Shown here one piece after another: positions 13,357 to 36,053 of a stretch of 64,000 nt of DNA; position 1 is the first letter of the stretch; every line of letters starts with the position of its first letter. Both the position numbers and the translations under genes were made by a program. The stretch is taken from positions 75,964 to 139,963 of the forward strand of contig CAZXLF010000007.1 in NCBI GenBank assembly GCA_964642015.1, written 5' to 3'. Below the pieces are notes generated by a model. The model was not told where the DNA came from. It was given only the letters and a program-made list of their open reading frames with translations, and made no database searches. The DNA comes from an uncultured Planctomycetia bacterium. GTDB taxonomy: Bacteria > Omnitrophota > Gorgyraeia > 2-02-FULL-51-18.

Positions 13357-14118
13357 TTAGTTTTTATGCAGGTCGTTCGAGAAAGTTGGAGTTTCTAAAA
13401 ACCTAGCTTGGTTTGGATATGTCCCAAGCCATTGCACGGAGCCTTTGTTAATATCATAAACCGCACCGACAATTTTTAGTTCACCTTCTTTAACTTTGTC
13501 TCTTATCTCGGAACTTCTTTTTAAAATATCCTCGATAGATTGCCAGACATTTTCTTCAATAGCGTATGGCAGAATATCGTCACCTTTTAGCTCTGGGTGA
13601 AATCGTTTTGCGTTTTCAACAGCAGGCATAATATTCTCAAGTAAATTCGGGATACTGCCATGCACTTCGGCATTCGTCGCAGCCGCGGCTACTGCCCCGC
13701 ATTGAGTATGTCCTAAAACAATCAACACCGGGGCATCTAAGTGGCCAACGCCATATTCCATAGATGCAATCTCGTCTGTATTTGCAACATTCCCAGCCAC
13801 ACGAATACTAAAAATGTCCCCGACACCTTGGTCAAATAGTACCTCTACAGGAACGCGAGAATCCGAACAGCTTAAAACCACACAAAAAGGTTTCTGTCCA
13901 TTTTTTGCTGTTTCTACTCGACGAGCTTCATCTGAACGAGGATGTATGGAAATTCCTGAAACATAGCGGACGTTGCCCTCTAAAAGCATTTGCAATGCCT
14001 GATCCGAGGTGACATTCTTCGACACCGTTTTATCGGCTGCGCAGGCACTGATTGCTACTGAGCACGTAAATACAATCCAAATCAAAAAAACTTTATGAGC
14101 GAATATTTTATTTTTCAT
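13357..14118 (-). CDS. Beta-class carbonic anhydrase, secreted
   Basis: Signal peptide; CSDSRVPVE and HTQCGAV zinc-ligand motifs of beta-CA. Confidence 0.85.
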   Translation of the reverse strand: MKNKIFAHKVFLIWIVFTCSVAISACAADKTVSKNVTSDQALQMLLEGNVRYVSGISIHPRSDEARRVETAKNGQKPFCVVLSCSDSRVPVEVLFDQGVGDIFSIRVAGNVANTDEIASMEYGVGHLDAPVLIVLGHTQCGAVAAAATNAEVHGSIPNLLENIMPAVENAKRFHPELKGDDILPYAIEENVWQSIEDILKRSSEIRDKVKEGELKIVGAVYDINKGSVQWLGTYPNQARFLETPTFSNDLHKN

Positions 14119-14204: not shown

Positions 14205-15107
14205 CTAGCGATGAGCTAACTCTAAAGAGAGTCGGCGAGCTTTAAGGATGCTGAACTCCGGCGCTCGTTTTATATCCCACACAAAACCCAAGAGACTTGA
14301 AATCCAGATAAACCACTTGCTCGGGTCCCAGTGGTACCAACGGACACCATTGCGGTAATCATTAGGAAATTTGTGATGAAAACTATGATAGCCTTCTCCA
14401 CCTGTCAGGAAGGCGCCTAACCAGTTATCCCGCGCGCTTACTTCCGAAGCATACGTCGCTTTGCCAAAATAGTGCGCAAATGAATTGATGAAAAAAACGA
14501 CCTGAAAAACTACGAACAGCCGGGCCACCACTCCAAATAACAACGCTTCCAAAATGTGGCCACACATAGCCCCGATTGACACGGGCAGAAGGATCCCAAA
14601 ACTGAACGCCCACAGTTGAAAATGACGGTGTTGATTCATGATCAATTTGGACTTTTCCAGGTCTTTGACATTGGAATAATCAATGGATCGAAGATAAAAC
14701 AAGATCCAATCCATGTGCGCATAAAAAAACCCTTTTTTGATATTGTAAGGGTCTCTGTCTGTATCCGTGTATTGATGATGTGTGCGGTGCAAAGAAGCCC
14801 ATTTGAGCGCCGATTGCTGAAAAGTCGAAGCGCCGAACGCTAGCATTAAAAAACGATAAGAGACATTAGCCCGGTAAGTGGAATGAGCATAAAGCCGGTG
14901 ATAGCCGGCCGTGATGGCGGTCACACCGCATATACACATGCCAAAGAACAAGAAAACGCTTGCTGTATGAATGCCATAAAAAAACAGATAGAGGGGACAG
15001 CCGACCAACGCTATGACGGAGATGCCATATAAAAAAATAATGCTCGGCCACCGGTTATGCCGCACGCCGATGGTGCAATCTTTTTGAATAGAAGAAATGG
15101 AACTCAT
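14205..15107 (-). CDS. Acyl-CoA (delta-9-type) fatty-acid desaturase
   Basis: Three His boxes (HRLYAH, HRTHH, HSFHHKF) and 4 TM segments. Confidence 0.85.
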   Translation of the reverse strand: MSSISSIQKDCTIGVRHNRWPSIIFLYGISVIALVGCPLYLFFYGIHTASVFLFFGMCICGVTAITAGYHRLYAHSTYRANVSYRFLMLAFGASTFQQSALKWASLHRTHHQYTDTDRDPYNIKKGFFYAHMDWILFYLRSIDYSNVKDLEKSKLIMNQHRHFQLWAFSFGILLPVSIGAMCGHILEALLFGVVARLFVVFQVVFFINSFAHYFGKATYASEVSARDNWLGAFLTGGEGYHSFHHKFPNDYRNGVRWYHWDPSKWFIWISSLLGFVWDIKRAPEFSILKARRLSLELAHR

Positions 15108-16921: not shown

Positions 16922-18397
16922 TCATTGCTTTTCAGTGATGGCCGCTGAACTAACCGCAAATGTCTTTTTTCTATTGTCTTGATTTGCTGCGGATGCGTCT
17001 GGAGTTGTATTGACAAAACCGATGGACTTACCGCTTGGCTGACTGGTCGATAAAGCTGTTGTTGAAGTTATTTCGGGTATTCTAGCCGAAGAAGCAGTAT
17101 GTGGTGTAGTATTCAAGTTCTCTGATTTGTATTTAAATTTTTTATTGGCTGTTTTGATATCCAATGCCTTGCCGTCCTTGTAAACGGCTCTGAACTTAAT
17201 GTCATAGTCTTGGTTTGGAGCGGGACTAAAAGAATAAGACCACCGAGATATTCCTTCTATATTATGCCAGCTGAACCCGCCATCCAGGCTTACTTCCAAG
17301 TGATCCACGGGAGCATTGTCATTTAGATTTCCGGAAAGCACTGCGGGTTTGCCGTTCAAATCTTCAAAAGACATGGACCGAGAGACGTCTTCAAGATCTT
17401 CTCCGTTCAGCTTCACGCTCGAGAACTCTGGAACGGAGATTTCCGCCGGGCCGTCGGCTTTTGCAAAATCCCCCGTATCGATGATCGAATGAGATTTGTC
17501 CTGGCCGAGGTAAATCAAGTCCTTATTGGTGGGGGGTTTCGTGGGGCGAATGACACTGTTCTCAACGACCGGAGAAGTATTGTCAATGGTCACGTTGGAC
17601 TGCGCGTACCCGGATTTCATCTCTGTTGATGCCGGCGGGCTTCCGTCACTGCCATCATCAATGGGAATAAATGCAGATGTTGTGGCGCGGACCATGGCCG
17701 GGCCGTCGGGCTGGAGGCGGGTATCCCACCGGAAAGTGTATGTCATTTTTGGCTTTGTAACGGTCACCTTCGGAAATAACTCGTAAGAGCCCGGAAAATC
17801 CACCCCAACCGTTAGGGCACCTGCGCAATCACCGGACTGATCTACTAAATTGACCACGATATTCCGGACGCCGTGAACTTGCTCACCTTCTTTGGGGTTG
17901 ATGGTCACATCCACGCAAGGGGCCAAGACCCTTTCACTCTCATAAAAGTGCTGATACACGATCGGGGTTTGTGTCACTTCACCAAGAGCCTTAGACGCCA
18001 GGTCATAGACAGTGGCTTTGAGAGTTACCGGACCGAAGGGACTTTTCCCCCACGCGCCTTTGGGGTCGTATTTCGCAATATCCCATGTCACGTAATAAGT
18101 CTTGCCGGAACCTTTCTGGACTTTGATCGTCTGCGGTGGCTGGTTTCCGATCGTGAGCTCTATATGGTCGGCAAAACGGTTGTTCGAAAGCTTAACGCCA
18201 ATGAAAGTGACGTCGTACACTTTTTCGTCATCGGCGGGGCTAAGGGTTATGGTGCAGTCATGGGCGTCGGAGAGGTTGTTGTTTTGAGCATTGCCCTGGC
18301 TTGCCCATGACGGATGGATTTGAATCCCGGAGAGGATCAAAAAAATGGCCGAGCAAAAGAGAAGCTTCAAACAAGAACACTTGGTCACATTTGCCAC
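16922..18397 (-). CDS. Secreted surface protein with a Ser/Thr/Pro-rich C-terminal tail
   Basis: Signal peptide, beta-rich body, low-complexity TTPHTASSARIPEITSTTALSTSQPSG tail. Confidence 0.5.
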   Translation of the reverse strand: MANVTKCSCLKLLFCSAIFLILSGIQIHPSWASQGNAQNNNLSDAHDCTITLSPADDEKVYDVTFIGVKLSNNRFADHIELTIGNQPPQTIKVQKGSGKTYYVTWDIAKYDPKGAWGKSPFGPVTLKATVYDLASKALGEVTQTPIVYQHFYESERVLAPCVDVTINPKEGEQVHGVRNIVVNLVDQSGDCAGALTVGVDFPGSYELFPKVTVTKPKMTYTFRWDTRLQPDGPAMVRATTSAFIPIDDGSDGSPPASTEMKSGYAQSNVTIDNTSPVVENSVIRPTKPPTNKDLIYLGQDKSHSIIDTGDFAKADGPAEISVPEFSSVKLNGEDLEDVSRSMSFEDLNGKPAVLSGNLNDNAPVDHLEVSLDGGFSWHNIEGISRWSYSFSPAPNQDYDIKFRAVYKDGKALDIKTANKKFKYKSENLNTTPHTASSARIPEITSTTALSTSQPSGKSIGFVNTTPDASAANQDNRKKTFAVSSAAITEKQ

Positions 18398-18547: not shown

Positions 18548-18692
18548 GTGGAATTGAATTGGAACCACATTATCCATGAATTGGAGAATCTCTATAAACT
18601 CAAGGAGTTAGGATCGTCTTCAGAAAGTCATTCTATCATGCCTAAGGCGGAATCCTACTCCTAATAGACTCCCCTTTGGTATTAGAAACAGG
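18548..18692 (+). repeat. Intergenic repeat element copy B; it overlaps the annotated 3' end of the PiT ORF
   Basis: See copy A. Confidence 0.7.
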
Positions 18693-19831
18693 TGGAACGC
18701 ATTTATTAAATAATAGCACCCTGCACTTAAAACAGCGGCTAAAGGCAGGGTAATCAACCACGCTAAAAGAATTGAGCCGATCATTTTTCCGTTGGCACGT
18801 TTATTAATTAGACCAATCCCAAACAATGATCCACAAGAAACATGAGTGGTTGAGACGGGAAAGCCTAAACACGATGCCAGAATCACTAAAAACGCTGTGA
18901 CGAAGTTTGCAGTAAGACCTTGCCCAGGATTAATTGAAGTGATTTTATGAGACATTGTTTCGGCTACTTTCCTAGCACCAATAATTCCGCCAAAAGCCAT
19001 GAGAACAGCCACGAACGTAATATTAAATCCAAGCCCTAAAGTTCCAAACGCCACTGATAGCGCTACGATCTTTGGCGTGTCATTTAAGCCCCTAGCAAAA
19101 CTGACTGCGCCTGCACTTAAAAAATGGGTGTCATCTAAAATTTCTCGAATGGATACCCCGAATATTTTACCTGAATGCAATTCGGCTGATTTTGCTTGAC
19201 AAACTTCCCTCTCCCCGACAAAAACATCCATCTGAGGCAAAGTCAAAGTCGAAAAGGTAATTCCACCTGCCATTGCTAAACTCATTTGTGCTTTCTCGCC
19301 AGCACATACACACGATTCCCTGCTAATACCAGTAACTTTACCAGCCCAGCGAAAAAGAAAGTAAAAGATAAACGTAAGACCAAGGGCTAGGAGCGGACTT
19401 ATGACTAGTGGGATGAAGAAATTTTTTTTCAGTGCGGAAAAACCCAATCTTTCACCGACGGCAACAAAACCCGCTCCCACAAGGGCACCTGTCAAACTGT
19501 GGGTGGTCGAAATAGGACTTCCAATCCTTGAAGCTGTAAAAACAGTAAGTCCTGCTCCCAATATAACTGCTACCAGAAATGCTGGTTCCGCTATAACCAT
19601 ATCCGGCACAAGTCCTTTGCCACTAAAAGTCTTTACGAGTTTATCCGCCCAAAAATAAGCACAAAGCGATCCGAGTAGAGTAGTTGCTGTTGCCCATACA
19701 AGTGCTTTTTGATAACTGGCAATCCCACTGCCAAAAAGAGTGGCGACTCCTTTGAAGTTATCATTCGCACCATTGACATAAGCAATAAATAAAACGGTGC
19801 CAAAAACAAGAATCTCCCATAAACTAACCAT
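18620..19831 (-). CDS. Inorganic phosphate transporter, PiT family
   Basis: Two GANDxxxxxxxxxGS / GLNDTPK internal repeats typical of PHO4/PiT. Confidence 0.65.
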   Translation of the reverse strand: MVSLWEILVFGTVLFIAYVNGANDNFKGVATLFGSGIASYQKALVWATATTLLGSLCAYFWADKLVKTFSGKGLVPDMVIAEPAFLVAVILGAGLTVFTASRIGSPISTTHSLTGALVGAGFVAVGERLGFSALKKNFFIPLVISPLLALGLTFIFYFLFRWAGKVTGISRESCVCAGEKAQMSLAMAGGITFSTLTLPQMDVFVGEREVCQAKSAELHSGKIFGVSIREILDDTHFLSAGAVSFARGLNDTPKIVALSVAFGTLGLGFNITFVAVLMAFGGIIGARKVAETMSHKITSINPGQGLTANFVTAFLVILASCLGFPVSTTHVSCGSLFGIGLINKRANGKMIGSILLAWLITLPLAAVLSAGCYYLINAFHLFLIPKGSLLGVGFRLRHDRMTF

Positions 19832-20552
19832 TGTTATCCTTCAACGTTTCTGAAAACCAATTTTCTATTTCTTCTATGAACGGCTTTGAGAACTGTCTAT
19901 AAATCTCCTCGGCATGGGTTCCTTTTTCAAAGATTTTAATCTTTTTGGGCTGTTGTGCTTTTCCGTAAAGCGATTCGCTGTGTTTTGCACTTACGGTAGG
20001 ATCGTTAGTTGCATGAATAAAATAAATTGGGGCAGATATCGAAGAAATGACATCTAGTGGTTTTATTTTGTGAAGAAAAGGATTTCCCGGTCTTACACCT
20101 GCGCCCGGCTCAAGACCCTTCATTCCAAGTTTTATGGCGTCGATTGTCCACCATTTAAACTCGATCTTCTCGCTATCCATTGGAGAACTCACGCAAACAA
20201 TACTGTCGATATTTTTGAACTCTGCCTGTTCGATAATGGCAATAGATCCGCCATAGGAGAATCCCAACACTCCCACTTTTTTATAACGCTCCCGTGCATA
20301 ATCGATGACAGCTTTCAAATCTTCTTTCTCCAATGCAGAGAAAGTGTAAAGACCATCGGACTTGCCATGTCCTCTGAAATCCATAGAAATAACGTCAAAG
20401 TTTTTCTCTAAATCATGGGCGATGCGTGTAAAAGTGGGGGTAATTTTGCTTTGGAAAAATCCTGGGGCAATGACGATCGCTCTATCTTTTTCGGTCCTTA
20501 AATGATGGATTGAAATTTTAATTCCAGATGTGGTTTGGACAAATTTTTGCAC
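19824..20552 (-). CDS. Alpha/beta hydrolase (dienelactone hydrolase/S9-like)
   Basis: GFSYGG nucleophile elbow; HGKSDG. Confidence 0.7.
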   Translation of the reverse strand: MQKFVQTTSGIKISIHHLRTEKDRAIVIAPGFFQSKITPTFTRIAHDLEKNFDVISMDFRGHGKSDGLYTFSALEKEDLKAVIDYARERYKKVGVLGFSYGGSIAIIEQAEFKNIDSIVCVSSPMDSEKIEFKWWTIDAIKLGMKGLEPGAGVRPGNPFLHKIKPLDVISSISAPIYFIHATNDPTVSAKHSESLYGKAQQPKKIKIFEKGTHAEEIYRQFSKPFIEEIENWFSETLKDNNG

Positions 20553-20563
20553 CCAAACACCTC

Positions 20564-20905
20564 TTATCTAAACATTCTTCCACCATTAAGAACCAGCCAA
20601 CTGGCGCCGCAAGTAAGTCCTGACAATAAGAAAGTAACACCGAAAGCCGTTAAAATCCCTTTTAATGTTTCTTTTCGGTTTTTTCTCTTAGCCACGATTG
20701 AAAAAGGGATAACATATATTAATTGGAACAAAAAGACCCAACCTGCCCAGAACCATAAGATAATCGGTATTGTTTGGATAGCTCCGAAAAATCGCCTCGG
20801 CAAAGAGACTAAAATCGACAAAGCCAAAGGAATAACTAAAAATATTACGTGGCCCCAAAGAACCTGAGTGATACCGACAGACATTTTGTCATTTTCGTCA
20901 TTCAT
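20564..20905 (-). CDS. Hypothetical membrane protein
   Basis: 3 TM helices; contiguous with the radical SAM gene. Confidence 0.45.
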   Translation of the reverse strand: MNDENDKMSVGITQVLWGHVIFLVIPLALSILVSLPRRFFGAIQTIPIILWFWAGWVFLFQLIYVIPFSIVAKRKNRKETLKGILTAFGVTFLLSGLTCGASWLVLNGGRMFR

Positions 20906-22315
20906 TTATTTTTGCTTTTCAATCGCGCTTTCAGCCAAAGAAGCGACGTTTATTTTATTGTCTCGGTAGAAAATGTTGTATGTATCAAACGGAATTATTC
21001 TTCCGTCTGGATGAACGATGTGTACACATGACCGCTTAACTGATCTCACATCGAAGTTGTACGGGTCCAAAAATTCCATGATTGTCAGACGAAAAATGTT
21101 ATCGTAAGAGAGGCCTGGCGCGGCAACCTTCGGAAGACAACATAAAAGATCGTGCACGGCATGAGAAGACGATTTGGGGGAATGGTTTAAAGAAAATAGG
21201 CTAAAAACCTTTTCTTTAATGTTGGGTTGCTGCTCATAAAGAATGGTGTTTCTATAATCTTTTAGGAGAATTTGAGGATCCATAAGACCCGTGAGCGGCA
21301 CTACTTTTTCGTCCAATTTAACAGCATAGGCCATAGCAATGCAGTCGGGATGACACGGGACAGGAATAATATCTTCTGGTTTGAATACTGAGGATTGATT
21401 CAAAATCTGTTGCCTGATTTCTGTTAATGTAAGTCGGTCTTTTGCAGGATCAAATTGCTGCAATCGGCCTGCAACTTGAATAGGTTGAAACGTTACGCCT
21501 CGAACACATCGTTGTTTCATAGCAAAATCAATGATTTTTCCGATTTCGTTGTCATTCAATCCTTTTTTGACTGTCACGACCAAATTGGTAGAAATATTGA
21601 ATTCATTTAAATGCTCAAGCGCCTTAAATCTTACCGTTCTTAAATCCAGCCCTCTGATTTCCTCCAGATGATTTTTCTCCATACTGTCGAATTGAAGATA
21701 AATCTCTAAGCCGGGCATGTAATTTCTAAGCCGTTTACAAAACTCTTTGTCCTGTGAAATTCTCATTCCGTTTGTGTTAATCATGAGATGTCTAATTGGT
21801 TTGGTTTTTGCCAAGTCCAGCACTTCAAAGAAATCGGGATGAATAGTCGGTTCACCACCGCTTAATTGCACGATATCAGGTTCGCCCTCGTTCTTGACAA
21901 GCTCATCCATCATGAATTCAATTTCCTGAAGAGAACGGTGGCGGCCATTTGTAGGAGAAGACTCTGCATAACAAATCGGACATTGAAGATTGCAGCGATC
22001 CGTTATCTCAATTAGTGTTAGACAGCTATGTTGTTCATGATCTGGGCAAAGCCCGCAATCATAAGGACATCCGTGAACTGTCGCTGTATTAAATCTCTTC
22101 GGCAACTGACCAGGTTTTAGAAAAGCTCGGCACTTTTTGTAATACTCAATATCTGTCGAGATTAAGACTTTTTCAGTTGTGTGTTCCAAGCAATTCTTTA
22201 ATAAATAGACTTTCGCATCTTCAAAAATAATCTTTGCCTCAACTTTTTTCAGACATTTAGTGCATAGGCTGTTTGTCAATTCATAAAAAATATAAGATCT
22301 TTCGGTGATATTCAT
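20906..22315 (-). CDS. Cys-rich radical SAM enzyme with an N-terminal Zn-ribbon/auxiliary-cluster region
   Basis: CNLQCPICYA (CxxxCxxC) radical SAM motif. Extra Cys clusters: CTKC..C..H, HGCPYDCGLCPDHEQHSC, CHPDC, CC. 469 aa. Confidence 0.8.
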   Translation of the reverse strand: MNITERSYIFYELTNSLCTKCLKKVEAKIIFEDAKVYLLKNCLEHTTEKVLISTDIEYYKKCRAFLKPGQLPKRFNTATVHGCPYDCGLCPDHEQHSCLTLIEITDRCNLQCPICYAESSPTNGRHRSLQEIEFMMDELVKNEGEPDIVQLSGGEPTIHPDFFEVLDLAKTKPIRHLMINTNGMRISQDKEFCKRLRNYMPGLEIYLQFDSMEKNHLEEIRGLDLRTVRFKALEHLNEFNISTNLVVTVKKGLNDNEIGKIIDFAMKQRCVRGVTFQPIQVAGRLQQFDPAKDRLTLTEIRQQILNQSSVFKPEDIIPVPCHPDCIAMAYAVKLDEKVVPLTGLMDPQILLKDYRNTILYEQQPNIKEKVFSLFSLNHSPKSSSHAVHDLLCCLPKVAAPGLSYDNIFRLTIMEFLDPYNFDVRSVKRSCVHIVHPDGRIIPFDTYNIFYRDNKINVASLAESAIEKQK

Positions 22316-23049
22316 TGAACTTCCTTTCTGGTATAGGCGAATTGAAACATGGGCTTGATGGATCGCACTATGACCAATAATCCAATAATGGCTATCACTT
22401 GGACAATATCCATTCCGAAGTAAAAACGTGGGGTTGGTTTTATGAACTCGACAAAAAACCGAAACGTTAAATACCCAATCATGAAGAACTTAAAAATATC
22501 TCCTTGAGAAAAAGGGTATTTTTTTCGAATTAGGATGAAAGAAAGCAGAACAAGCATGAAAAGGATCTCGTAGACTTGGGTAGGGTGCCGGGTAATACCG
22601 TCGCCAAAATCAAACCCCCATGGAAGACTAGTGGGCAAACCATATGTTTTGTCATAAAACCCTGTCACAAAACAGCCGATCCTTCCGATAATAATTCCAA
22701 TGATAAGCGGTATGACAAATATATCTCCTGTTGGAGTGCTTAAGCCGATCATTTTCTTAGTAATTTCTACGCCCAACCAACCTCCTGTTAAGGCTCCTAC
22801 AATTCCTTTTCCTGCAATGAGCTGATGCATATCGGATAGATTAAGCATAAACGATATGGGATCATCAAACCAAACAACCAATTTTGAACCCAGCGCAGCT
22901 CCTAAGATGCCGCCGGCGATGACCCAATTTCTTTGGGATGATTCAATAGAATCCTTTTTTCGCATCCATAAGAAAACTCTAAATCCAACAAAATAAGCGA
23001 GAGCTTCAAAAATCATGTGGTATATTGGTGGAAACATCCCGAGCCTCAT
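22312..23049 (-). CDS. lgt: Prolipoprotein diacylglyceryl transferase family protein
   Basis: Lgt hallmarks: N-terminal HMIFEALAYFVGF, signature GRIGCFVTG, C-terminal HPTQVYE. Start overlaps the radical SAM stop (ATGA). Confidence 0.7.
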   Translation of the reverse strand: MRLGMFPPIYHMIFEALAYFVGFRVFLWMRKKDSIESSQRNWVIAGGILGAALGSKLVVWFDDPISFMLNLSDMHQLIAGKGIVGALTGGWLGVEITKKMIGLSTPTGDIFVIPLIIGIIIGRIGCFVTGFYDKTYGLPTSLPWGFDFGDGITRHPTQVYEILFMLVLLSFILIRKKYPFSQGDIFKFFMIGYLTFRFFVEFIKPTPRFYFGMDIVQVIAIIGLLVIVRSIKPMFQFAYTRKEVQ

Positions 23050-23579
23050 GCTGTCTCCTTTTTTGCTAAAAGGTATTTAATAAAATAAAACCCTTCGAAC
23101 AATAACAAGAATAGAGTAATACCGGCGGTTACAAATCCTTGGATAATGAATTGCCTAGGCATATCAAGAATGTGGAAAGATAACGTTGCACCCTGATGGA
23201 TTACTTTACCCGACTCAATCAGAGCAACAATCAGAATCGCACCGCTTATAAACATGCTCAGCATGTGGACGAGATATTCAAACGGAGGTAATCCTCCGAG
23301 CGAAGACCTACTTTGCGGTTCGAGATACACATCAATCAACGAATTAATAAAATCTAGTATTAATAAGGCAGGTAACATAATGGCGTAAGCTCCTTTTGGC
23401 TGGGCAAACAAAATCCAGAGAATGATACAAAAGAAAAGAAAGGTACGAACAAGGTGTGTTAGGTGTTCTAAGCGGCTAGTAGTTCGTTTATAGATTTTGA
23501 ACTTATAAATGTGGAAATAAATAACGTCCGCGCTTCCCAGAAGGGCATAAAAACATAAAAGAAAAAATAATATAATCAT
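23046..23579 (-). CDS. Hypothetical polytopic membrane protein
   Basis: 5 TM helices; 4-nt overlaps on both sides. Confidence 0.5.
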   Translation of the reverse strand: MIILFFLLCFYALLGSADVIYFHIYKFKIYKRTTSRLEHLTHLVRTFLFFCIILWILFAQPKGAYAIMLPALLILDFINSLIDVYLEPQSRSSLGGLPPFEYLVHMLSMFISGAILIVALIESGKVIHQGATLSFHILDMPRQFIIQGFVTAGITLFLLLFEGFYFIKYLLAKKETA

Positions 23580-24301
23580 TCGGATACCTTCTCATCTAAA
23601 TTTCTCACATGTTTAGCCGGCATACCCGCAAAAAGAGTTTTTTCAGAAACCATCGTATTTTTAGGCAGTACAGATCTCGCGGCAATCAAGGCTCCGCTTC
23701 CGATAGACGCGCCGGGCATAATGACAGCGCCTAATCCAATGGTTACTTTTTTGCCAATCACTGTCTTCTTGAGTTTTAGTTTCCCATGTTCGGCTAAATG
23801 GCCAATCAAGACTGCATCACCGCCAATGACAGAATCATCTCCAATCTCAAGAAGCGATACGTCAGCAAGTCCCTTAGTATTTATCTGAACTCGTCTACCT
23901 ATTTTGGCGCCCATTAAGCGATAATAAAGCGGGAGAAAAGGTGTAAGCCTCATGAAATCCATGAACGTCAGATTCACAATGAGCATCATCGCATTTACAA
24001 ATGCCCATTTGGTTCCCTCTAAAGAGAAAAAATTGTATTCTCCTTCTTGAAGTTTCAGATTTAAGACAAATCGTAATACAACGGTCTCCACAGACAGAGT
24101 CAAACCGAAAAGAAAATATCCAAATCCAAGACCGCCTGCCAAGATCGAGGACTTAAGAAAAAGATGGGTTGGATTTATCATTTGCCAAAGATAAAGTGTT
24201 AAGTATATAGGCGGAATAATGGCAATCGTCAAAATGACCGCGCCAAGAAAATACATTGAAAGCGTAAAGAGATATTGAAGAAGCGTTGCGTATTGCTTCA
24301 T
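23576..24301 (-). CDS. Membrane-anchored hexapeptide-repeat (LbH) acyltransferase; the track's longer N-terminal extension is rejected
   Basis: 2-3 N-terminal TM helices, then C-terminal hexapeptide repeats (GAKIGRRVQI...IGGDAVLIG...IGLGAVIMPGASIGSGALIAA). Confidence 0.65.
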   Translation of the reverse strand: MKQYATLLQYLFTLSMYFLGAVILTIAIIPPIYLTLYLWQMINPTHLFLKSSILAGGLGFGYFLFGLTLSVETVVLRFVLNLKLQEGEYNFFSLEGTKWAFVNAMMLIVNLTFMDFMRLTPFLPLYYRLMGAKIGRRVQINTKGLADVSLLEIGDDSVIGGDAVLIGHLAEHGKLKLKKTVIGKKVTIGLGAVIMPGASIGSGALIAARSVLPKNTMVSEKTLFAGMPAKHVRNLDEKVSE

Positions 24302-24314
24302 AGCGTATAATTCC

Positions 24315-24551
24315 TCAGAAAAGTTTTGGCAATCCCCAGAATTTCCCGCATAAACCCCAAAACAACAACAGAAATAATCCAATTGTCGATAGAAAAATAG
24401 ATAAATCTCTCTTCCAAGTTGATTTCTTTGGTTTCTCTGGCATTGGAACTGGATGGTATTCACCTTCTTTAAATTCCAAATCTTGACTGCAATAAAGACA
24501 GACTTTCCATGTATCATCAAAAACCTTATTGCATTTGTTACATACTCTCAT
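24315..24551 (-). CDS. Small Zn-ribbon plus single-TM protein
   Basis: CNKC...CLYC ribbon, then a hydrophobic helix. Confidence 0.45.
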   Translation of the reverse strand: MRVCNKCNKVFDDTWKVCLYCSQDLEFKEGEYHPVPMPEKPKKSTWKRDLSIFLSTIGLFLLLFWGLCGKFWGLPKLF

Positions 24552-24575
24552 GCTAAGACCTCCGATTTTTCGTTC

Positions 24576-25037
24576 TCAAATGTTCCGCCTTAAACGATCC
24601 AGACCTGCTACGGTTCTCCTAACATCCGCATCGGGCAACGACACGATTTCATTCACTTTCCTCTTATAAACAGGCCATGCTTTCACTAAAAGGTCAGAAC
24701 CTTTTCTAGTGATCTTAATTAAATTGACCCTTCGGTCTTCTGTGTCGGCCACTCTTTCAACCCAGCCTTCTTTTTCGAGTCGGTCAATCAGACGTGTGAT
24801 ATTGCCCGCCGTTACAATCATTCGTTGGCTGATATCCACCTGAGATAGACCTTTCTCTTTACCGACGTGTTTAATCATTAGAAGCGCATTCATCTTTACA
24901 GCACTTAGACCAAACGAATCTAAAACTTTTTCGATTTCTTTCTCAATAAGAACATAGGATAAGGCAAGATTATAAAGAAGCTCTTCCCTTAATCTGTCTT
25001 TACCATCTCTAATCCCTAACTCACTGAAAATGGACAT
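24576..25037 (-). CDS. MarR-family transcriptional regulator (start at the internal Met with an SD)
   Basis: Winged-HTH MarR pattern (LSQVDISQRMIVTAGNITRLIDRLEKEGWVER). Confidence 0.75.
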   Translation of the reverse strand: MSIFSELGIRDGKDRLREELLYNLALSYVLIEKEIEKVLDSFGLSAVKMNALLMIKHVGKEKGLSQVDISQRMIVTAGNITRLIDRLEKEGWVERVADTEDRRVNLIKITRKGSDLLVKAWPVYKRKVNEIVSLPDADVRRTVAGLDRLRRNI

Positions 25038-25170
25038 TTGGTTTTCCTTTAAATATAGTTTACATAGCAACTATTAATAAATCAAGTTATTTGTCATTTG
25101 TCAGTTGGAGATGAGGATCCCCGTTACAAGCGCAAAACTCGTAACGAGATAGGTTTTTGTTTGAATAAAA

Positions 25171-25248
25171 TGGCGACCCCAACGGGATTCGAACCCGTGT
25201 CATCACCGTGAAAGGGTGATGTCCTAAGCCAGGCTAGACGATGGGGTC
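25171..25248 (-). tRNA. tRNA-Glu (UUC), CCA encoded
   Basis: Reverse complement GACCCCATCGTCTAGCCTGGCTTAGGACATCACCCTTTCACGGTGATGACACGGGTTCGAATCCCGTTGGGGTCGCCA folds as a cloverleaf with anticodon loop CTTTCAC. Confidence 0.85.
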
Positions 25249-25255
25249 AAAAGGA

Positions 25256-27745
25256 TTACTTGGTTTCTTTTTCTTTGGATTCTTCGGCAGAGCCCTCATC
25301 CTCGGGCTCCACTTTGGCGATCGTAACGACTTTGTCGTTGGCTTTCTTAAGATTGATGAGGCGAACGCCCTGCGCGACACGGCCTGTCTCACGGATATCT
25401 TTCACCGAACAACGTACGACCATACCGGCTTGCGTCATGATCATGAGATCATCTTTATCGGTAACACATTTCAGTCCGACGACGCGGCCGTTCTTGTCGG
25501 TCACTTTGATATTCGTGACGCCTTTTCCTCCGCGCGAAGTCACGCGGTATTCGCTGATCTCAGAGCGCTTGCCAAAACCTTTTTCAGTCACAGATAATAG
25601 CGTCGCATTTTTATTCACCACTTCCATGCCAATCAGAAAATCTTTGGATTCAAGACTGATGCCACGAACTCCGCCCGCTGCGCGTCCCATGCTGCGGACT
25701 AGATTCTCAGGAAAACGAATCGCTTTTCCATTGTGAGTGGCCAAAAATATTTCCTGTTCGCCGTCGGTGAGCTCCGCTTCGATGAGCTCATCTTTGGCAT
25801 CAAGTCCTATCGCGACAATACCGCTGCGGCGTGTGTTTTCAAAATCAGTAAGCTCACATTTCTTGATCTGTCCCAAACGCGTAGCCATCGCCAGATATTT
25901 GCCTTCCTCAAATTTCCGCACCGGAATATAAGAGGTAACTTTCTCGCCTTGAGATAACGAAACGAAATTGGCGATGAATTTGCCTTTCGATATACGACTG
26001 GCTTGAGGGATCTCATGCACCTTCAATACAAATACCTTTCCTTTGGAAGTGAATAAAAGAAGATTATCGTGCGTTGAGGCAATAAAAAGATGTTCGACAA
26101 AATCTTCCTCGGCGCCTCCGGAACCAACACCCACGCCTCCACGCTTTTGTTTGCGGTAAGTCGTGACCGGCAGGCGCTTCACATACCCCTGATGGCTGAT
26201 CGTCACCACCACATCTTCTTCGGCGATCAGATCCTCGACATCAAGCTCTACATCGACACTCTTTGAGATCTCGGTCCTGCGGTCATCACCGTATTTTTCT
26301 TTAAGTTTCAAAAGTTCTTCTTTGATGATCTCAAGCACCTTCTTTTCGGACTTGAGCACCGATTCAAAATACTCGATCTTCTTGAGAAGTTCCTTAAATT
26401 CCTCTTCTAGCTTATGGATTTCAAGACCGGTCAGCTTTTGAAGCTGCATTTCGAGAATGGCCTGCGCTTGCTTATCTGAAAATTCAAAATCCTCGATCAA
26501 CGCCGCTTTAGCTTCGGCCGGTGTTTTGGATTTGCGGATCGTCTTGATGACCTTATCCAGAATATCGACGGCTTTCTTCAAACCCTCGACGATATGCGCG
26601 CGGTCTTTGGCTTTTTCTAGATCAAACTTTGTGCGGCGGATAATGATATCTTTGCGATGGCGAATGTATTCGTGGATAATTTCCTTTAATTTCAAGACCC
26701 TCGGAGAACCGTCCACCAGCGCGAGAAAGATGATGCCGAACGTGGTCTGCATCTGAGTGTGTTTATAAAGCTGATTCAATACGATCTGCGCATTGGCGTC
26801 GCGCTTGAGATCGATCACCAGACGCATGCCCTCTTTGTCCGATTCATCGCGCACATCGGAAATACCTTCGATCTTTTTCTCATTCACAAGCTCGGCAATG
26901 TTTTCGATCAGATTGGCTTTATTGACCTGGTAAGGAATTTCACTGATGATGATCGCCTGTTTTCCGCCCTTCAATTCCTCGATCCCTGCTTTGGCTCTGA
27001 TCTTAAGAAGCCCGCGGCCTGTCTCATACGCGGATTTCAAACCCTCCGTACCGCAGATCATGGCTCCCGTCGGAAAATCAGGTCCTTTGATATGCTTCAT
27101 CAGATCCTTTGTCTGGATCTCGGGATCTTCAAGCTGAGCAACAATCGCATCGGCTACTTCATTTAAATTATGGGGAGGGATATTCGTCGCCATACCGACT
27201 GCTATACCGCTCGAGCCGTTGCATAAAAGATTGGGAAGCGTCGCGGGAAGAAGCGTCGGTTCTTCCAATGTTTCGTCAAAATTGGGAGCAAAATTTACGG
27301 TGTTTTTTTCGATGTCACTGAGGATCGTATCCGTGATACCGGCAAGACGCGCTTCGGTATAACGCATCGCGGCCGCTGAATCTCCATCGACTGAACCAAA
27401 ATTACCCTGTCCGTCGACCAACGGATACCTAAGAGAAAAATCCTGAACCATGCGCACCAGCGTGTCGTACACAGCCACGTCTCCGTGCGGGTGGTATTTA
27501 CCAAGCACTTCTCCGACGATACGCGCGCATTTCTTGTAGGAGCGGCTGTGGTCCAAACCCAGCTCTTTCATCGCAAAAAGAATGCGGCGATGGACGGGTT
27601 TCAAACCATCTCTTACATCAGGCAATGCGCGTCCAACAATGACGCTCATCGCGTAATTAAGGTAGGAAGTTTTCATTTCCTGTTCGATAAAAACAGGATT
27701 TACTTTTTCATTACGGGTATAAATATTTTCAGTTTTATCTGCCAT
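25256..27745 (-). CDS. gyrA: DNA gyrase subunit A
   Basis: 829 aa; the N-terminal region contains conserved GyrA motifs ([33 protein letters not shown]); C-terminal beta-pinwheel repeats. Confidence 0.95.
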
Positions 27746-27748
27746 TTT

Positions 27749-30319
<2,571 letters not shown>

Positions 30320-30625
30320 TTAGAACTCCCCTATTCTAAAATGAATTTCAGAGATTCTATCCTTTCCGAGCTTTCTTTTCAATCCTTTTAAGATATCCCG
30401 TTTGCGCATCGAAAGCTCCTGCATCCAAGCTGAGTTATCGACTCGTATACTCAAAACCTTGTTCCGGATAGCTGTTGGTCTTGAATGTTTGAAACCATTC
30501 TCACCAACAAGTTCTTTCCAGAACGATTCCATAGATTCGCTGGATGGATTGGTTGATCCCTCCAATCTTGCGAAAACATTTTGAATAACCTCGCTTATCG
30601 GAGAGACCTTTGAACCTTTTGCCAT
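30320..30625 (-). CDS. DUF721-domain protein in the conserved dnaN-gyrB slot
   Basis: 101 aa; the position and size are typical of DUF721 proteins. Confidence 0.6.
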   Translation of the reverse strand: MAKGSKVSPISEVIQNVFARLEGSTNPSSESMESFWKELVGENGFKHSRPTAIRNKVLSIRVDNSAWMQELSMRKRDILKGLKRKLGKDRISEIHFRIGEF

Positions 30626-30649
30626 TGCGGATATGGGTGGTATCGCGGA

Positions 30650-31759
30650 TTAACTCACCTGCATCGGCAGCACAATGTATGTATAATCTTCGCCACTTTT
30701 AATGACGGCCGGTTTTTCAGGATCTATAAATCCAAACTGAACATTCTCATCACCAACATTCTTCAATACATCAATAAGAAAAGTTGGGTTGAAGCCGATC
30801 GCTAGCTCGCCTCCTTTATAATCCACTTCAAGCTCTTCACGCACCTCGCCAAGATCAGGTGTATTCTTAGTGATGATCATTCGGTCTTTAATGATATTTA
30901 TCTTCACTGATTGAGAATCTTGGTTTGTTAATATACTCGCGCGTCTTGTCGCTTGTAAAAAATCCTGAGTATTTATCTTTAATTCCTCTTTCGTTTTTTT
31001 AGGGATAACTTGCTCATAATTCGGGTATTCCCCCTCTATTAAACGGGAAATAATAGTCACCTGACCAAGATTGATTTGAAGTTGGTTCTCTTTAAAATAA
31101 AAAACCACATCACCTTCTTCAAGAAGATTTCGATTTAACTCTTGGATTGTTTTCATAGGAACTATCACATCCTTTTTAACATTACCAATCTCCTGAATCT
31201 CTTTTTCTATAATCGCCAGTCTCCTACCATCAGTTGCTACAAGTTTTAACGCCTTATCTTTAAAACTAAATAGTATCCCATTTAATACATAACGGGATTC
31301 ATCATGGCTCATCGCAAAAGAAGTAAGTTGAATCATACTCTTTAAAAGTCTTTGAGGTATCTTCACTAAATCTACGCTTTTCACGGTATGCGGGAAATTG
31401 GGAAGTTGAGGGAAATCCTCCTTTAAAAGTCCCATTAAACGAAAATAACTTTTATCTGCCTCAATTTGAATTGATTGACCTTTTTTTACAGAGACTGTTA
31501 TCTCGGTTTGATTTGAAAGTTCTTTAATAATTTCACTAAACTTTCTAGCAGGTACTGTTATTGATCCCTCTTCCAAAACATCCCCTTTAACAACTGCAAC
31601 AACCCCAATTTCAAGATCAGTAGCAGTTAACCTAATCTCTTGTTTTTGAGCTTCTACTAATATATGAGATAAAATTGGAAGTGTACTTTTTGTACTAACA
31701 GCGTTTTGTACCACTTGAATACCCTTTAACAATTCATCCTTTAATATTTTTATTTTCAT
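30650..31759 (-). CDS. dnaN: DNA polymerase III beta sliding clamp
   Basis: 369 aa; three-domain clamp pattern; located between dnaA and gyrB. Confidence 0.9.
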   Translation of the reverse strand: MKIKILKDELLKGIQVVQNAVSTKSTLPILSHILVEAQKQEIRLTATDLEIGVVAVVKGDVLEEGSITVPARKFSEIIKELSNQTEITVSVKKGQSIQIEADKSYFRLMGLLKEDFPQLPNFPHTVKSVDLVKIPQRLLKSMIQLTSFAMSHDESRYVLNGILFSFKDKALKLVATDGRRLAIIEKEIQEIGNVKKDVIVPMKTIQELNRNLLEEGDVVFYFKENQLQINLGQVTIISRLIEGEYPNYEQVIPKKTKEELKINTQDFLQATRRASILTNQDSQSVKINIIKDRMIITKNTPDLGEVREELEVDYKGGELAIGFNPTFLIDVLKNVGDENVQFGFIDPEKPAVIKSGEDYTYIVLPMQVS

Positions 31760-31914
31760 AGTTATTCACTCCATTGTTATTATTTATCTTTTATAAATCA
31801 AAAACAGTCATAGTAGTAATAGCTTGAATAATGGTATTAGTCCCTAACTTTAATATTTAAAACAACTTACAAATTAACAACTTGTGTATAACTATTCACT
31901 TATCCACAGTTTGT

Positions 31915-33300
31915 TTACTTACGAATTTCAAGTGATAACTTATCCACAAGCGATTTTGTTTTTTGATCCTTCTTAATATCTTTCTTTATTTTCTGATAAG
32001 CGTGTAAAACTGTTGTATGATCACGTCCACCAAATTGTTCACCAATCTCTGGTAATGATAAACCTGTCATTTCTCTAGATAAAAACATCGCAACATGTCT
32101 GGGATAAACCACATTTTGTGAGCGGCGCTTGGCAGTCATATCAGAGGGTCGTATTTCGAAATATTCTGCCACTTTCCTTTGAATAACGTCAACCGTGATC
32201 TTTTTTTGATTTTCAACAATAAGGTCTTTTAAAACGTCATAAGCGACATCCTGATCAACTTCTTTACCAACTAACTTAGAGTAAGCCACCACACGTATTA
32301 AAGCTCCTTCAAGTTCCCTTATATTTGATTTTATACGGTCCGCGATGAATGAGGTCACGCCATCGGGAATGTGGAGATTTTCTCTCTCAGCTTTTTTTCT
32401 CAAAATAGCCGTTCTGGTTTCAAAATCGGGCGGTTGAATATCAGTTACCAATCCCCATTCAAATCTAGATACCAACCTCTCTTCCAAATTTGAGATATCT
32501 TTCGGTGGTTTGTCACTCGAAACAACTATTTGTTTATGGTAGTCATATAACGTGTTAAACGTATGAAAAAATTCCTCCATAGTGGCTTCTTTTCCCGCTA
32601 TAAAATGAATATCATCAATAAGCAAACAATCAACGTTTCTATATTTTTCCCTAAATTTAATAGTGGTACCGGTCTTAATGGCATTAATTAATTGATTGGT
32701 AAATTTTTCGCTGGTGATATAAAGAACTTTCATGCCAGGATTTCTTGTAAGTATCTCTTGTCCAATAGCTTGCATTAAATGCGTTTTTCCAAGTCCAACA
32801 GGCCCATAAATAAAAAGAGGGTTGTAAGCTTTAGCGGGTGTTTCAGCTACGGCCATTGAAGCTGCATGGGCAAATCTGTTCGAAGGTCCAACAACAAAAC
32901 TTTCAAACGTATATTTCGAATTTAAAGCCGGCTCCGAAAGATTTCCATTCATTATTGTCGGAGATACGGATGAATAATAGCTGTTTTGAGCTATTTTTGT
33001 TTGATTGGTTATTGAGTTTACAGGTTCCGGATCTGATTTTGAAACTTCGAAAGATAATTTAAAAGATGGGTCTCCAGTTATATCTTTTGCGGCGAGCGTG
33101 ATCATGCTTCCATAATGGTCCACTATCCAATTCTTAAAGAAATCATCAGGTACTCCAAGGTTTAGTTCATTCTCTGTGAATTTAAGAGGCTGGATTGGTT
33201 TTAGCCATCGATCGTAGACATGAGGACTCAGCTCATTTTTAAGAGATTCTATTACTTGTGTCCACAAGTTTGATGCGTTTAAATCTTTGAAGTTATCCAC
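31915..33300 (-). CDS. dnaA: Chromosomal replication initiator DnaA
   Basis: AAA+ Walker A GPVGLGKTHL, sensor motifs, C-terminal DNA-binding domain. DnaA boxes flank the gene. Confidence 0.95.
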   Translation of the reverse strand: MDNFKDLNASNLWTQVIESLKNELSPHVYDRWLKPIQPLKFTENELNLGVPDDFFKNWIVDHYGSMITLAAKDITGDPSFKLSFEVSKSDPEPVNSITNQTKIAQNSYYSSVSPTIMNGNLSEPALNSKYTFESFVVGPSNRFAHAASMAVAETPAKAYNPLFIYGPVGLGKTHLMQAIGQEILTRNPGMKVLYITSEKFTNQLINAIKTGTTIKFREKYRNVDCLLIDDIHFIAGKEATMEEFFHTFNTLYDYHKQIVVSSDKPPKDISNLEERLVSRFEWGLVTDIQPPDFETRTAILRKKAERENLHIPDGVTSFIADRIKSNIRELEGALIRVVAYSKLVGKEVDQDVAYDVLKDLIVENQKKITVDVIQRKVAEYFEIRPSDMTAKRRSQNVVYPRHVAMFLSREMTGLSLPEIGEQFGGRDHTTVLHAYQKIKKDIKKDQKTKSLVDKLSLEIRK

Positions 33301-33699
33301 AGAATTTTGTTCTACCTTGTTAATATTGTTTTAATATTTTACTTTAAGTTTATTATTTTGAACTACTTATGAAACAAAAATTTAATAACAAGTAAACAAA
33401 TATAAATTTTGTACTTATAAACAAGTTATCCACAGGATATGATTTTTAAAAAACAATCAAGTTAGCTTCAAGATTTGTTGAGAAATTATAACAACTCAAA
33501 ATCTGTATTGCAACAATAATCTTTAGCTCTATCAAATTGGGTAAAAATTTGATCATCGAATTGTAAATTTCTTAGCGCAATCTCAATGCGGTTATCAAAC
33601 AAATTCAGCCAATCCGTATAATCCACGTTGACACTCTTTATGGGCGTTGCTATAATTTCTTACTTTTAAAAAGCTAAATCAAGCCCAATTAAGGATCCC
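33301..33699. other. oriC candidate: AT-rich unwinding region plus DnaA boxes between divergent dnaA and rpmH
   Basis: TTATCCACA at 33293-33301 and 33426-33434 (also 31900-31908, 31940-31948, and TGTGTCCACA near 33257). 33301-33420 is over 80% AT. Gene strand bias switches here. Confidence 0.75.
33627..33655 (+). promoter_or_regulatory. Sigma70-type promoter for rpmH (TTGACA-17-TATAAT)
   Basis: ttgacactctttatgggcgttgctataat, about 45 nt upstream of the rpmH ATG. Confidence 0.6.
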
Positions 33700-33837
33700 A
33701 TGAAAAAAACGCTTACGAATAAATCAAACATAAAAAGAAAGCGCACTCACGGATTTAGAAAAAGAATGCGTTCTAAAGACGGACGAAAAGTGATCAAAAG
33801 GCGGCGTCAAAAGGGCCGGCACAGTCTTACGGTCTGA
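33700..33837 (+). CDS. rpmH: 50S ribosomal protein L34 (missed by the 60-aa ORF cutoff)
   Basis: Manual translation [45 protein letters not shown]. Confidence 0.9.
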
Positions 33838-33848
33838 GTTATTTTAAC

Positions 33849-34133
33849 ATGCCTGAAACCGAAGGCTGGCTTTCTTTAAAGTGCCAGGAAAAGCCCAGGT
33901 CAATGGTAAGTGTTGAGAAGGCCTCACTTCTTATTTCTATTCCTAAGAAAGTGGTTTTCCTTGCGACCGAGCGCAATAAGATTAAACGACTGATACGGGA
34001 AGCGTTTAGACATAGGATGAGCTTGAATTCCAAGAAGGCTTATTTATTTCGAGTCGTTCGGTATCCGGGCAACGTTGGTCTTCGGGAAATAAACGACGCA
34101 ATGGATACGGCGATTGCTCACTCAAAACAATGA
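33849..34133 (+). CDS. rnpA: RNase P protein component
   Basis: [14 protein letters not shown] motif; position after rpmH. Confidence 0.75.
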
Positions 34134-34368
34134 GTTTATGCCAATGATAAATAAAGTGGCGATTTTTTTCATCATGATCGTTTCCAGGATCTTCAGATTT
34201 AATAATCTGAGAGCGTGTCGGTTCTACCCAAGCTGTTCAGAATATTCGATAGAGGCGTTTAAGAAATTTAATGTTTTGAAAGCAGCTTATTTAATGACGA
34301 GAAGGATCTTGCATTGCCATCCGTTCTGTGAAGGCGGATTTGATCCGGTTCCTGATATAAGAGTATGA
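34114..34368 (+). CDS. yidD: Membrane protein insertion efficiency factor YidD
   Basis: [10 protein letters not shown]...[13 protein letters not shown] conserved Cys pattern. Confidence 0.85.
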
Positions 34369-34382
34369 ATCAATAGGGATTT

Positions 34383-36029: not shown

Positions 36030-36053
36030 AATTTTTTACAATTTCAAATCAAC

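Follow-up and report, generated by a model that had tools for sequence, protein, structure and literature searches.

A conserved three-gene cassette pairing an Lgt-like membrane protein with a Tes/GDGT-MAS-like radical SAM enzyme and a small cysteine-tailed protein

The archaeal enzyme Tes, or GDGT-MAS (glycerol dialkyl glycerol tetraether-macrocyclic archaeol synthase; MJ0619), is a radical SAM (S-adenosylmethionine) enzyme that binds bacterial phospholipids and couples tail termini via an S-C cluster intermediate (PMC9433317). Bacterial homologues of Tes/GDGT-MAS are known to exist, are explicitly uncharacterised and have counted as unexplained since 2022 (PMC9433317, PMC8941075), and Tes homologues serve as markers of the potential to produce brGDGTs (branched glycerol dialkyl glycerol tetraethers) in metagenomes (PMC11868695). 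A second point of comparison is Mss of Thermotoga (Sahonero-Canavesi et al. 2022), a bacterial radical SAM enzyme by which fatty-acid tails are joined tail-to-tail (PMC13159169); unlike the enzyme described below, it belongs to another radical SAM family, whose kinship with Tes is remote, works without an Lgt-like or Cys-protein partner and comes from anaerobes. As regards protein lipidation, a second copy of lgt, the gene for prolipoprotein diacylglyceryl transferase, has been reported in ~1,300 genomes (PMC13251419). Here we analyse a 64-kb stretch of contig CAZXLF010000007.1 from an uncultured bacterium (hereafter the window) and show that it carries a self-contained, conserved three-gene cassette, which encodes on the minus strand an Lgt-like protein with seven transmembrane (TM) helices (245 aa; 22312-23049), a Tes/GDGT-MAS-like radical SAM enzyme (rSAM, 469 aa; 20906-22315) and a small membrane protein of 113 aa with an invariant C-terminal cysteine, C100 (20564-20905). 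Full-text literature searches, whose coverage did not extend to the description of the TrsS family, returned no paper that connects an Lgt paralogue with a Tes-like rSAM and a Cys-tailed partner. What the cassette suggests is a lipid or protein-lipidation pathway not yet described: machinery for protein S-lipidation and radical SAM chemistry on lipid tails are each of a known kind, and there is a real chance that the cassette represents a new pathway.

The evidence for the cassette as a unit comes from 73 genome loci, together with loci recovered by exact-protein look-up, of which 68 carry enough flanking sequence to be informative. In 67 of these 68 the Lgt-like and rSAM genes are neighbours, with the Lgt-like gene upstream on the same strand in 61 loci, downstream in three and divergently in three, and the upstream same-strand copies typically overlap the rSAM gene or sit within a few bases of it. 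The cassette is spread over at least 12 bacterial phyla and two archaeal lineages represented by metagenome-assembled genomes (MAGs), with rSAM homologues, 60-87% identical across phyla, in Planctomycetota, Melainabacteria, Sericytochromatia, Rivularia, Bacteroidota/Chlorobi-like lineages, Bacillales, Proteobacteria, Myxococcota, Elusimicrobia, Acidobacteriota, Gemmatimonadota and candidate phyla radiation (CPR) lineages. In a reciprocal search, the Lgt-like homologues of Rhodanobacter and Neobacillus novalis are each followed by an rSAM gene and then by a gene for a Cys-tailed small protein. Furthermore, pairwise identities of the Lgt-like proteins correlate with those of the rSAM enzymes across loci (r = 0.73), and clustering of all open reading frames (ORFs) within ±6 kb returned no recurrent neighbours beyond lineage-specific ones. 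These comparisons show that the three genes are inherited and transferred together, and the cassette appears to be horizontally mobile. A first-pass annotation of the window had proposed that a longer gene order, from a MarR regulator to the small TM protein, be sought in relatives; the Lgt-like–rSAM pairing within it is upheld and ranks with the tightest syntenies to be met with, whereas the MarR, Zn-ribbon and left-handed β-helix (LbH) acyltransferase genes stand outside the conserved unit, LbH being joined to the cassette in a narrow sub-clade only. Apparent Lgt-like/rSAM gene fusions in three loci (L060, L078, L045), which had they been real would have been Rosetta-stone evidence, were rejected as spurious upstream ORF extensions in high-GC DNA.

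The rSAM protein, which carries the Pfam domains Zn_ribbon_HMPTM and Radical_SAM, matches GDGT-MAS (PDB 7TOL) over its full length (E 1.5e-70), and its AlphaFold model (pLDDT 74, with low confidence at residues 345-398) superposes on the same structure with a TM-score of 0.79 at 30% identity, whereas all other solved radical SAM structures match the core only (TM-score < 0.4). The two enzymes share a four-domain architecture consisting of a rubredoxin-like domain, an N-terminal cluster, a CX3CX2C core and a C-terminal domain for a putative auxiliary cluster; they differ in that the window enzyme is ~40 residues shorter and belongs to bacterial proteins always paired with an Lgt-like gene, a pairing that archaeal Tes does not have. 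The best-scoring NCBIfam model is TrsS (NF045646), at 330.4 bits against a cut-off of 490, followed here by Tes (NF045702) at 299.9 bits against 450, so that neither cut-off is reached. The model of the TrsS radical SAM (seleno)proteins covers the enzyme end to end, rSAM residues 14-452 aligning over model positions 3-435 of 441, but the window gene reads through all 469 codons without an internal stop and therefore has no UGA-encoded selenocysteine. We assign rSAM, as judged from sequence and fold, to the Tes/MJ0619 type at superfamily level and within it to a distinct, unnamed clade. This agrees in part with the first-pass annotation, which had suggested an MJ0619/Tes type and had set it against a housekeeping enzyme: the Zn_ribbon_HMPTM domain and the full-length sequence and fold matches to GDGT-MAS support the type, rSAM is not a housekeeping enzyme, and membership of the Tes or TrsS equivalog families does not follow.

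Conservation across 70 family sequences delineates the putative metal sites of rSAM. The rubredoxin-like CX2CX20CX2H site, formed by C18, C21, C42 and H45 and aligned to C9, C12, C33 and H36 of GDGT-MAS, is at least 99% conserved; it is a Cys3His ribbon, not the Cys4/His ribbon read earlier. The ligands of the N-terminal auxiliary [4Fe-4S] cluster (C83, C87, C90 and H93/H96, where GDGT-MAS has C73, C77, C80 and a His) are invariant, as are C98 and the cysteines of the radical SAM cluster (C108, C112, C115). The extra cysteine groups that had been noticed beside the CxxxCxxC motif are indeed present, as C83/C87/C90/C98 and C321/C325/C392/C393/C430. Within the second group C321, C392, C393 and C430 are invariant, C392 and C393 making up a new CC motif (LLCCLP), and M413, which aligns to the labile Met439 of GDGT-MAS, is 81% conserved. 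With 125 of 469 residues conserved at 97% or more, the rSAM family is under extraordinary constraint. A PADLOC search with the seven operon proteins gave 55-bit pVip core matches for rSAM and nothing for the other six, and a defence-system or phage origin was rejected, as PADLOC and PHROGs yielded generic radical SAM core matches only.

The Lgt-like protein belongs to the Pfam LGT family (PF01790; 87.8 bits against a cut-off of 24.9), and the sole significant PDB match of its AF2 model (pLDDT 89) is E. coli Lgt (5AZB; Foldseek E 1.6e-6, TM-score 0.60). It shares with E. coli Lgt (5AZB/5AZC) the 7-TM Lgt fold and a predicted N-out/C-in topology that would place the cavity toward the outer leaflet, and it differs in its short periplasmic head (245 versus 291 aa overall). 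The HPTQVYE and GRIGCF signatures named in the first-pass annotation are both present. We compared active-site residues over 64 family members with the E. coli Lgt sequence, which agrees with the HMMER alignment. E. coli R143, R239 and G154, corresponding to R123, R197 and G137 of the window protein, are retained in 64 of 64 members of the clade, and G142, G145, Y235, E243 and the HPxQxYE motif are also kept. In addition, the clade has invariant residues of its own, namely K81, E95, K98, G108 and D109, and conservation together with the model places E95, K98, G108 and D109 on the cytoplasmic TM3-TM4 loop, which could provide a docking face for the cytoplasmic rSAM.

The third member of the cassette had been recorded in the first-pass annotation as a 3-TM protein that follows; it is present, and what had escaped notice is that it is a conserved member with an invariant C-terminal Cys. 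Profile searches place homologues directly downstream of rSAM in ~55 of 79 loci; with the few more contributed by a motif search the count is ~55-60 of 79, and overall the small protein follows in ~75-80% of loci, with tandem paralogues (two to three copies) in at least nine. The proteins range from 82 to 307 aa and their overall sequence conservation is low, and all 57 unique copies end in the same way, with a basic cluster (median of three K/R in 10 residues), a hydrophobic span of 15-26 residues (median 18), an invariant Cys and a short tail of 3-14 aa (median 9). A sample drawn from 1.84 billion cluster representatives gave 24 independent homologues, of which 22 keep the Cys. The positive-inside rule would put this Cys at the outer end of the last helix. 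This arrangement resembles a lipoprotein signal peptide with its lipobox in the charged segment, the hydrophobic span, the Cys at the outer face and the small or hydrophobic residues before it; it differs in that the Cys stands near the C-terminus of a polytopic protein and not behind an N-terminal signal peptide, that the hydrophobic span amounts to a full TM helix, and that the motif is [LI]xxG[LAGF]C and not L[AS][GA]C. In some Obscuribacterales (L017-L025, L028, L072; e.g., L017 9404-10117), and in a Poseidoniales archaeal MAG (L065 9509-10432), the Cys-tailed module is fused C-terminally to a domain of ~150-250 aa that has no Pfam match. Placed in this way behind another domain, the C-terminal hairpin with its Cys behaves as a portable module.

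The tandem paralogous genes and the variable 3-14-aa tails behind an invariant Cys would also suit a system akin to the RiPPs (peptides made on the ribosome and modified after translation), in which the small proteins are precursors that rSAM cross-links and the Lgt-like protein lipidates at the Cys before a C-terminal lipopeptide is released, and radical SAM enzymes commonly mature peptides. Against this stand the closest relationship of rSAM to a lipid enzyme, with SPASM/twitch peptide maturases among those matched in the core only, the fact that the conserved part of the small proteins is the membrane helices and not the tail, the lack of a conserved protease or exporter among the cassette neighbours, and a position -1 that is often unsuitable for signal peptidase II. 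We regard such a lipopeptide system as very improbable; like the defence-system reading above and the housekeeping-lgt reading below, it is poorly supported.

We propose that the Lgt-like enzyme lipidates the partner Cys and that the Tes-like rSAM remodels the lipid tails, a mechanism that we hold tentatively, at somewhat less than an even chance. The Lgt-like protein, with its two phosphate-binding arginines and the Lgt cavity retained, would be a transferase dedicated to the partner Cys, whose thiol would receive a diacylglyceryl-type lipid taken from a phospholipid, and the Cys would be presented much as a lipobox Cys is, at the outer leaflet behind a basic cytoplasmic loop and one membrane-spanning helix. 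The cytoplasmic rSAM, using 5'-deoxyadenosyl radicals and its auxiliary cluster, would activate terminal carbons of the acyl tails as GDGT-MAS does, and the resulting C-C (or C-S) coupling could precede transfer, on the donor lipid, or involve tails reaching the cytoplasmic face by way of the Lgt-like cavity. This would yield a membrane protein bearing a tail-crosslinked, macrocyclic or membrane-spanning lipid. In its full form, in which an Lgt paralogue lipidates a near-C-terminal Cys of a polytopic mini-protein and a Tes-like rSAM joins unactivated tail carbons before or after that step, the proposal would amount to a new kind of protein lipidation, which we consider possible and rather doubtful. 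If it were true, ordinary bacteria, including cultivable Bacillales, would carry a protein-bound macrocyclic or membrane-spanning lipid, and many of the 'bacterial Tes homologues' counted in metagenomes would not be brGDGT synthases.

Several observations weigh against lipidation of the partner Cys followed or preceded by tail coupling. Residues of the Lgt active site that are essential in E. coli (PMC13251419, PMC4728403) are replaced in the Lgt-like clade, Y26 by His in 57 of 64 members, H103 by Val in 60 of 64 and N146 by Cys in 64 of 64, and E151 gives way to hydrophobic residues; because Y26, H103 and N146 are absent, the clade may lack diacylglyceryl transferase activity. On the acceptor side, the Cys lies 3-14 aa from the C-terminus and not at the end of an N-terminal signal peptide closing in [LVI][ASTVI][GAS]C, position -1 is often Leu or Phe, and a canonical lipobox was rejected, since the strict pattern occurs in only 3 of 57 copies. 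The small protein was undetected nearby in ~20-25% of loci, for example in Sericytochromatia, some Myxococcota and a clade with reversed gene order. On the side of rSAM, C325 and C430 align to cysteines of GDGT-MAS, whereas C438 and C470 of GDGT-MAS correspond to I412 and D444. GDGT-MAS Tyr459, which is strictly conserved in 1000 archaeal homologues, is replaced by I433; as the Y459F and Y459L variants stay active, its loss argues against Tes membership and not against the chemistry. Topology adds a further difficulty: rSAM is cytoplasmic while the Cys and the Lgt cavity face outward, so that, for all three to react directly, lipids must flip or tails must gain access across the bilayer. Finally, no bacterial Tes homologue has demonstrated activity (PMC8941075, PMC11868695).

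The residue replacements have partial precedents. N146C is present in the Lgt of Leptospira, which partly complements an E. coli Lgt-depletion strain, and the combination of Y26H with N146C is the one reported for MSMEG_5408, an uncharacterised second Lgt homologue of M. smegmatis (PMC13251419). Together with the equivalog scores, the same replacements bear on whether the window simply holds an ordinary housekeeping lgt that lies beside a radical SAM gene by chance, as the Pfam LGT match and the annotation of homologues in their sources as prolipoprotein diacylglyceryl transferase might imply. The protein scores 48.9 bits with TIGR00544 against a cut-off of 118.9 and falls far below the cut-offs of the other Lgt equivalog models as well, three essential residues are replaced across the whole clade, the gene adjoins rSAM in nearly every informative locus over many phyla, and second lgt copies are, as noted above, a known phenomenon. 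We give a chance association hardly any credence, and the first-pass annotation was right in calling this no standard lgt context.

The leading rival, which we nevertheless think unlikely, is a free-lipid pathway in which rSAM, like Tes, makes membrane-spanning or macrocyclic lipids out of ordinary phospholipids, the Lgt-like protein is a non-catalytic adaptor that binds phosphatidylglycerol and presents its tails, and the small protein is a structural subunit whose Cys has a structural or redox role. The full-length kinship of rSAM with GDGT-MAS, the proposal of bacterial Tes homologues as brGDGT synthases (PMC8941075), the replacement of catalytic Lgt residues alongside retention of the lipid-binding R143 and R239, the loci with no small protein and the invariant cytoplasmic-loop residues, which fit a docking role, all agree with such a pathway. 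Archaeal Tes, however, works without an Lgt-like partner, and the small proteins, as tandem, fast-diverging proteins with one invariant Cys, resemble substrates more than subunits. The cassette is also found in aerobic Bacillales such as Paenibacillus, Brevibacillus and Aeribacillus, which are not known to make membrane-spanning lipids, and this counts against a free-lipid product.

A clade of Tes-like enzymes tied firmly to both an Lgt paralogue and a Cys-tailed mini-protein offers a concrete alternative function for bacterial Tes homologues, and caution is warranted in using Tes homologues as brGDGT markers. The cassette likewise gives a functional context to at least some second lgt copies, and it leads one to expect acceptors of a new class, not N-terminal and with no canonical lipobox. 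Since Paenibacillus, Neobacillus and Brevibacillus, all genetically tractable, are among the hosts of the cassette, the proposed lipidation of the partner Cys can be tested directly.

Some lineages vary the layout of the cassette. In five loci from Sericytochromatia/Blackallbacteria (L056, L058, L068, L071, L077), rSAM is directly followed by a gene for a 616-aa fusion of homocysteine S-methyltransferase and methylenetetrahydrofolate reductase (MTHFR; e.g., L077 9379-11229), and these loci yielded no small Cys protein; a methionine/SAM-regeneration gene at this position fits stoichiometric use of SAM by rSAM. In a Melainabacteria sub-clade (L012, L013, L052) the order is reversed, with rSAM preceding the Lgt-like gene, the Lgt-like protein is divergent and has a Cys-rich active-site motif (GRLGCFFNSCCCG / GRVGCYFNECCIG), and the small protein was undetected in these three loci. 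In Rivularia (L037, L041, L070) a gene for a 189-aa ABC-permease-like protein (BPD_transp_1; e.g., L037 7265-7834) lies between the Lgt-like and rSAM genes, and two small Cys proteins follow rSAM. This permease-like gene is a lineage-specific insertion of a membrane protein, like the gene for a protein with five TM helices (5-TM) in the window.

In the window the cassette lies within a co-directional minus-strand block (18620-25037), in which the seven genes of the first-pass annotation, from MarR to the small TM protein, all occur where it had placed them. The block opens with the MarR-family regulator (24576-25037; Pfam MarR and MarR_2), whose most likely start, ATG at 25037, corrects the earlier reading, followed by a 78-aa protein with a Zn-ribbon and one TM helix (24315-24551), recognised by alignment to the DUF2339 N-terminus. 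Next comes the membrane-anchored LbH (hexapeptide) acyltransferase (23576-24301), for which ATG at 24301 (241 aa), where homologues start, is more likely than the TTG at 24520 assumed before. Between LbH and the Lgt-like gene lies the 177-aa orphan 5-TM protein (23046-23579), translationally coupled to its neighbours. Downstream of the small protein, a 242-aa α/β-hydrolase (19824-20552; Pfam Hydrolase_4 and Abhydrolase_1) and a PiT/PHO4 phosphate transporter (18620-19831; Pfam PHO4, 203.6 bits) complete the block, and a tRNA-Glu(UUC) (25171-25248; ARAGORN; Rfam tRNA 60.3 bits) marks its upstream boundary and separates it from gyrA. Read from the sequence, the LbH/5-TM, 5-TM/Lgt-like and Lgt-like/rSAM junctions are 4-nt ATGA overlaps and the rSAM and small-protein genes abut in TAAATG, just as the earlier account of four overlapping or abutting junctions had it; an 11-nt gap leads from the small protein to the α/β-hydrolase, which overlaps PiT by 8 nt. 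With the cassette and the 5-TM gene thus placed between LbH and α/β-hydrolase of one operon, the cassette and the flanking operon genes are in all probability co-transcribed and translationally coupled.

This coupling of co-directional genes is what favours one integrated, MarR-regulated lipid or lipoprotein pathway of all seven genes with LbH acylating the product, as the first-pass annotation had read the locus, and the comparison with other genomes leads us to consider such a pathway quite improbable. Genes for LbH, 5-TM, MarR and hydrolase are all missing from some 70 cassette loci of other lineages, L082 (rSAM 87% identical) among them, and the close relatives L080 and L081 likewise lack LbH. 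In the survey of genome loci, the one place where the MarR, Zn-ribbon, LbH, 5-TM, hydrolase and PiT genes adjoin rSAM is a contig of the same organism. Conversely, metagenomic relatives of LbH (60-66% identical) sit in MarR–DUF2339–(DUF3999)–LbH–α/β-hydrolase operons that contain no Lgt-like or rSAM gene. There, MarR genes 58-66% identical to that of the window head the operons of L083-L086, the DUF2339 proteins carry an N-terminal Zn-ribbon, the LbH and hydrolase genes overlap or abut, and the gene directly after or overlapping LbH in L083, L085 and L086 is 57-73% identical to the window α/β-hydrolase, which is a conserved partner of LbH and not of the cassette. LbH itself matches Pfam Hexapep (36.5 bits against a cut-off of 27) and reaches no subfamily cut-off, scoring 88 bits with TIGR02353 (Pls/PosA terminal domain) against 423. 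The 78-aa Zn-ribbon protein aligns by its residues 1-73 with residues 1-72 of a DUF2339 protein of 565 aa in L085/L086 and likewise with the DUF2339 proteins of L083 and L084, members of a set of DUF2339 membrane proteins of 565-845 aa that occupy the same position after MarR. It looks like a short form or remnant of the DUF2339 N-terminus, a resemblance that likewise tells against one integrated pathway, and the alignment suggests that a large deletion truncated DUF2339 and also removed DUF3999. The block thus looks like an LbH operon with a DUF2339 stub, in which 5-TM, Lgt-like, rSAM and small-protein genes have been placed between LbH and the hydrolase, and MarR, Zn-ribbon and LbH belong to that operon and not to the conserved unit.

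A single insertion of the cassette into an LbH operon, with the linkage being incidental, was entertained and then softened, since locus L165 provides a second LbH–Lgt-like context. In this locus (rSAM 85%, LbH 80% identical) an 80-aa gene is followed by LbH, Lgt-like, rSAM and small-protein genes with no 5-TM gene, and LbH lies directly upstream of the Lgt-like gene in an upstream context different from that of the window, so that the linkage occurs in at least two lineages, as an integrated pathway would have it. A further contig (that of P0122) carries an 80%-identical Lgt-like gene with a 5-TM gene in a window-like position and may be a third case of LbH with the cassette, since its 5-TM gene comes after a partial ORF of unassigned identity. 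Within a narrow sub-clade the linkage of LbH is therefore real, but it does not characterise the system at large; LbH, hydrolase and MarR are lineage-specific add-ons, and any role of theirs in the chemistry of the cassette is hypothetical. The two closest relatives of the window cassette, L165 (48-290) and L082 (6748-6984), each have upstream of the cassette a gene, matching between the two, for a single-TM protein of ~80 aa that has no family match and is unrelated to the window Zn-ribbon protein. The 5-TM protein gave no Pfam, NCBIfam or PADLOC match, and jackhmmer over all fetched loci found nothing; the gene is absent from L165, L082 and the other cassette loci, the P0122 contig excepted. 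It has two relatives among 5.8 billion proteins, and because one of them is 67% identical without gaps, the ORF is a real gene and a genuine orphan.

As for the wider setting, an Rfam scan for riboswitches or other RNA elements in the operon gave only the tRNA-Glu, promoter and terminator matches were no more numerous than in shuffled sequence, and there is no second lgt within the 64-kb window. The GC content at third codon positions (GC3) of the MarR-to-PiT block with its tRNA (18620-25248) is ~0.32-0.41, against 0.50-0.54 for gyrA, gyrB and the gene at 16922-18397; the low GC3 and the adjoining tRNA-Glu are compatible with a horizontally acquired island. A few kilobases downstream on the same strand lie genes for a membrane fatty-acid desaturase (14205-15107) and a β-carbonic anhydrase (13357-14118), the desaturase being another lipid-modifying gene nearby that is unlinked to the cassette in other genomes. 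The window also covers the region of the chromosomal replication origin (25256-37871), where dnaA (31915-33300), dnaN (30650-31759), gyrB (27749-30310) and gyrA (25256-27745) on the minus strand diverge from yidC (34383-36029) and mnmG (36054-37871) on the plus strand. The cumulative GC skew has its minimum at ~32-34 kb of the window, and the intergenic gap of ~1.1 kb at 33300-34383 is the likely oriC. At a distance of 8-15 kb from this candidate oriC, the operon described here is co-oriented with replication.

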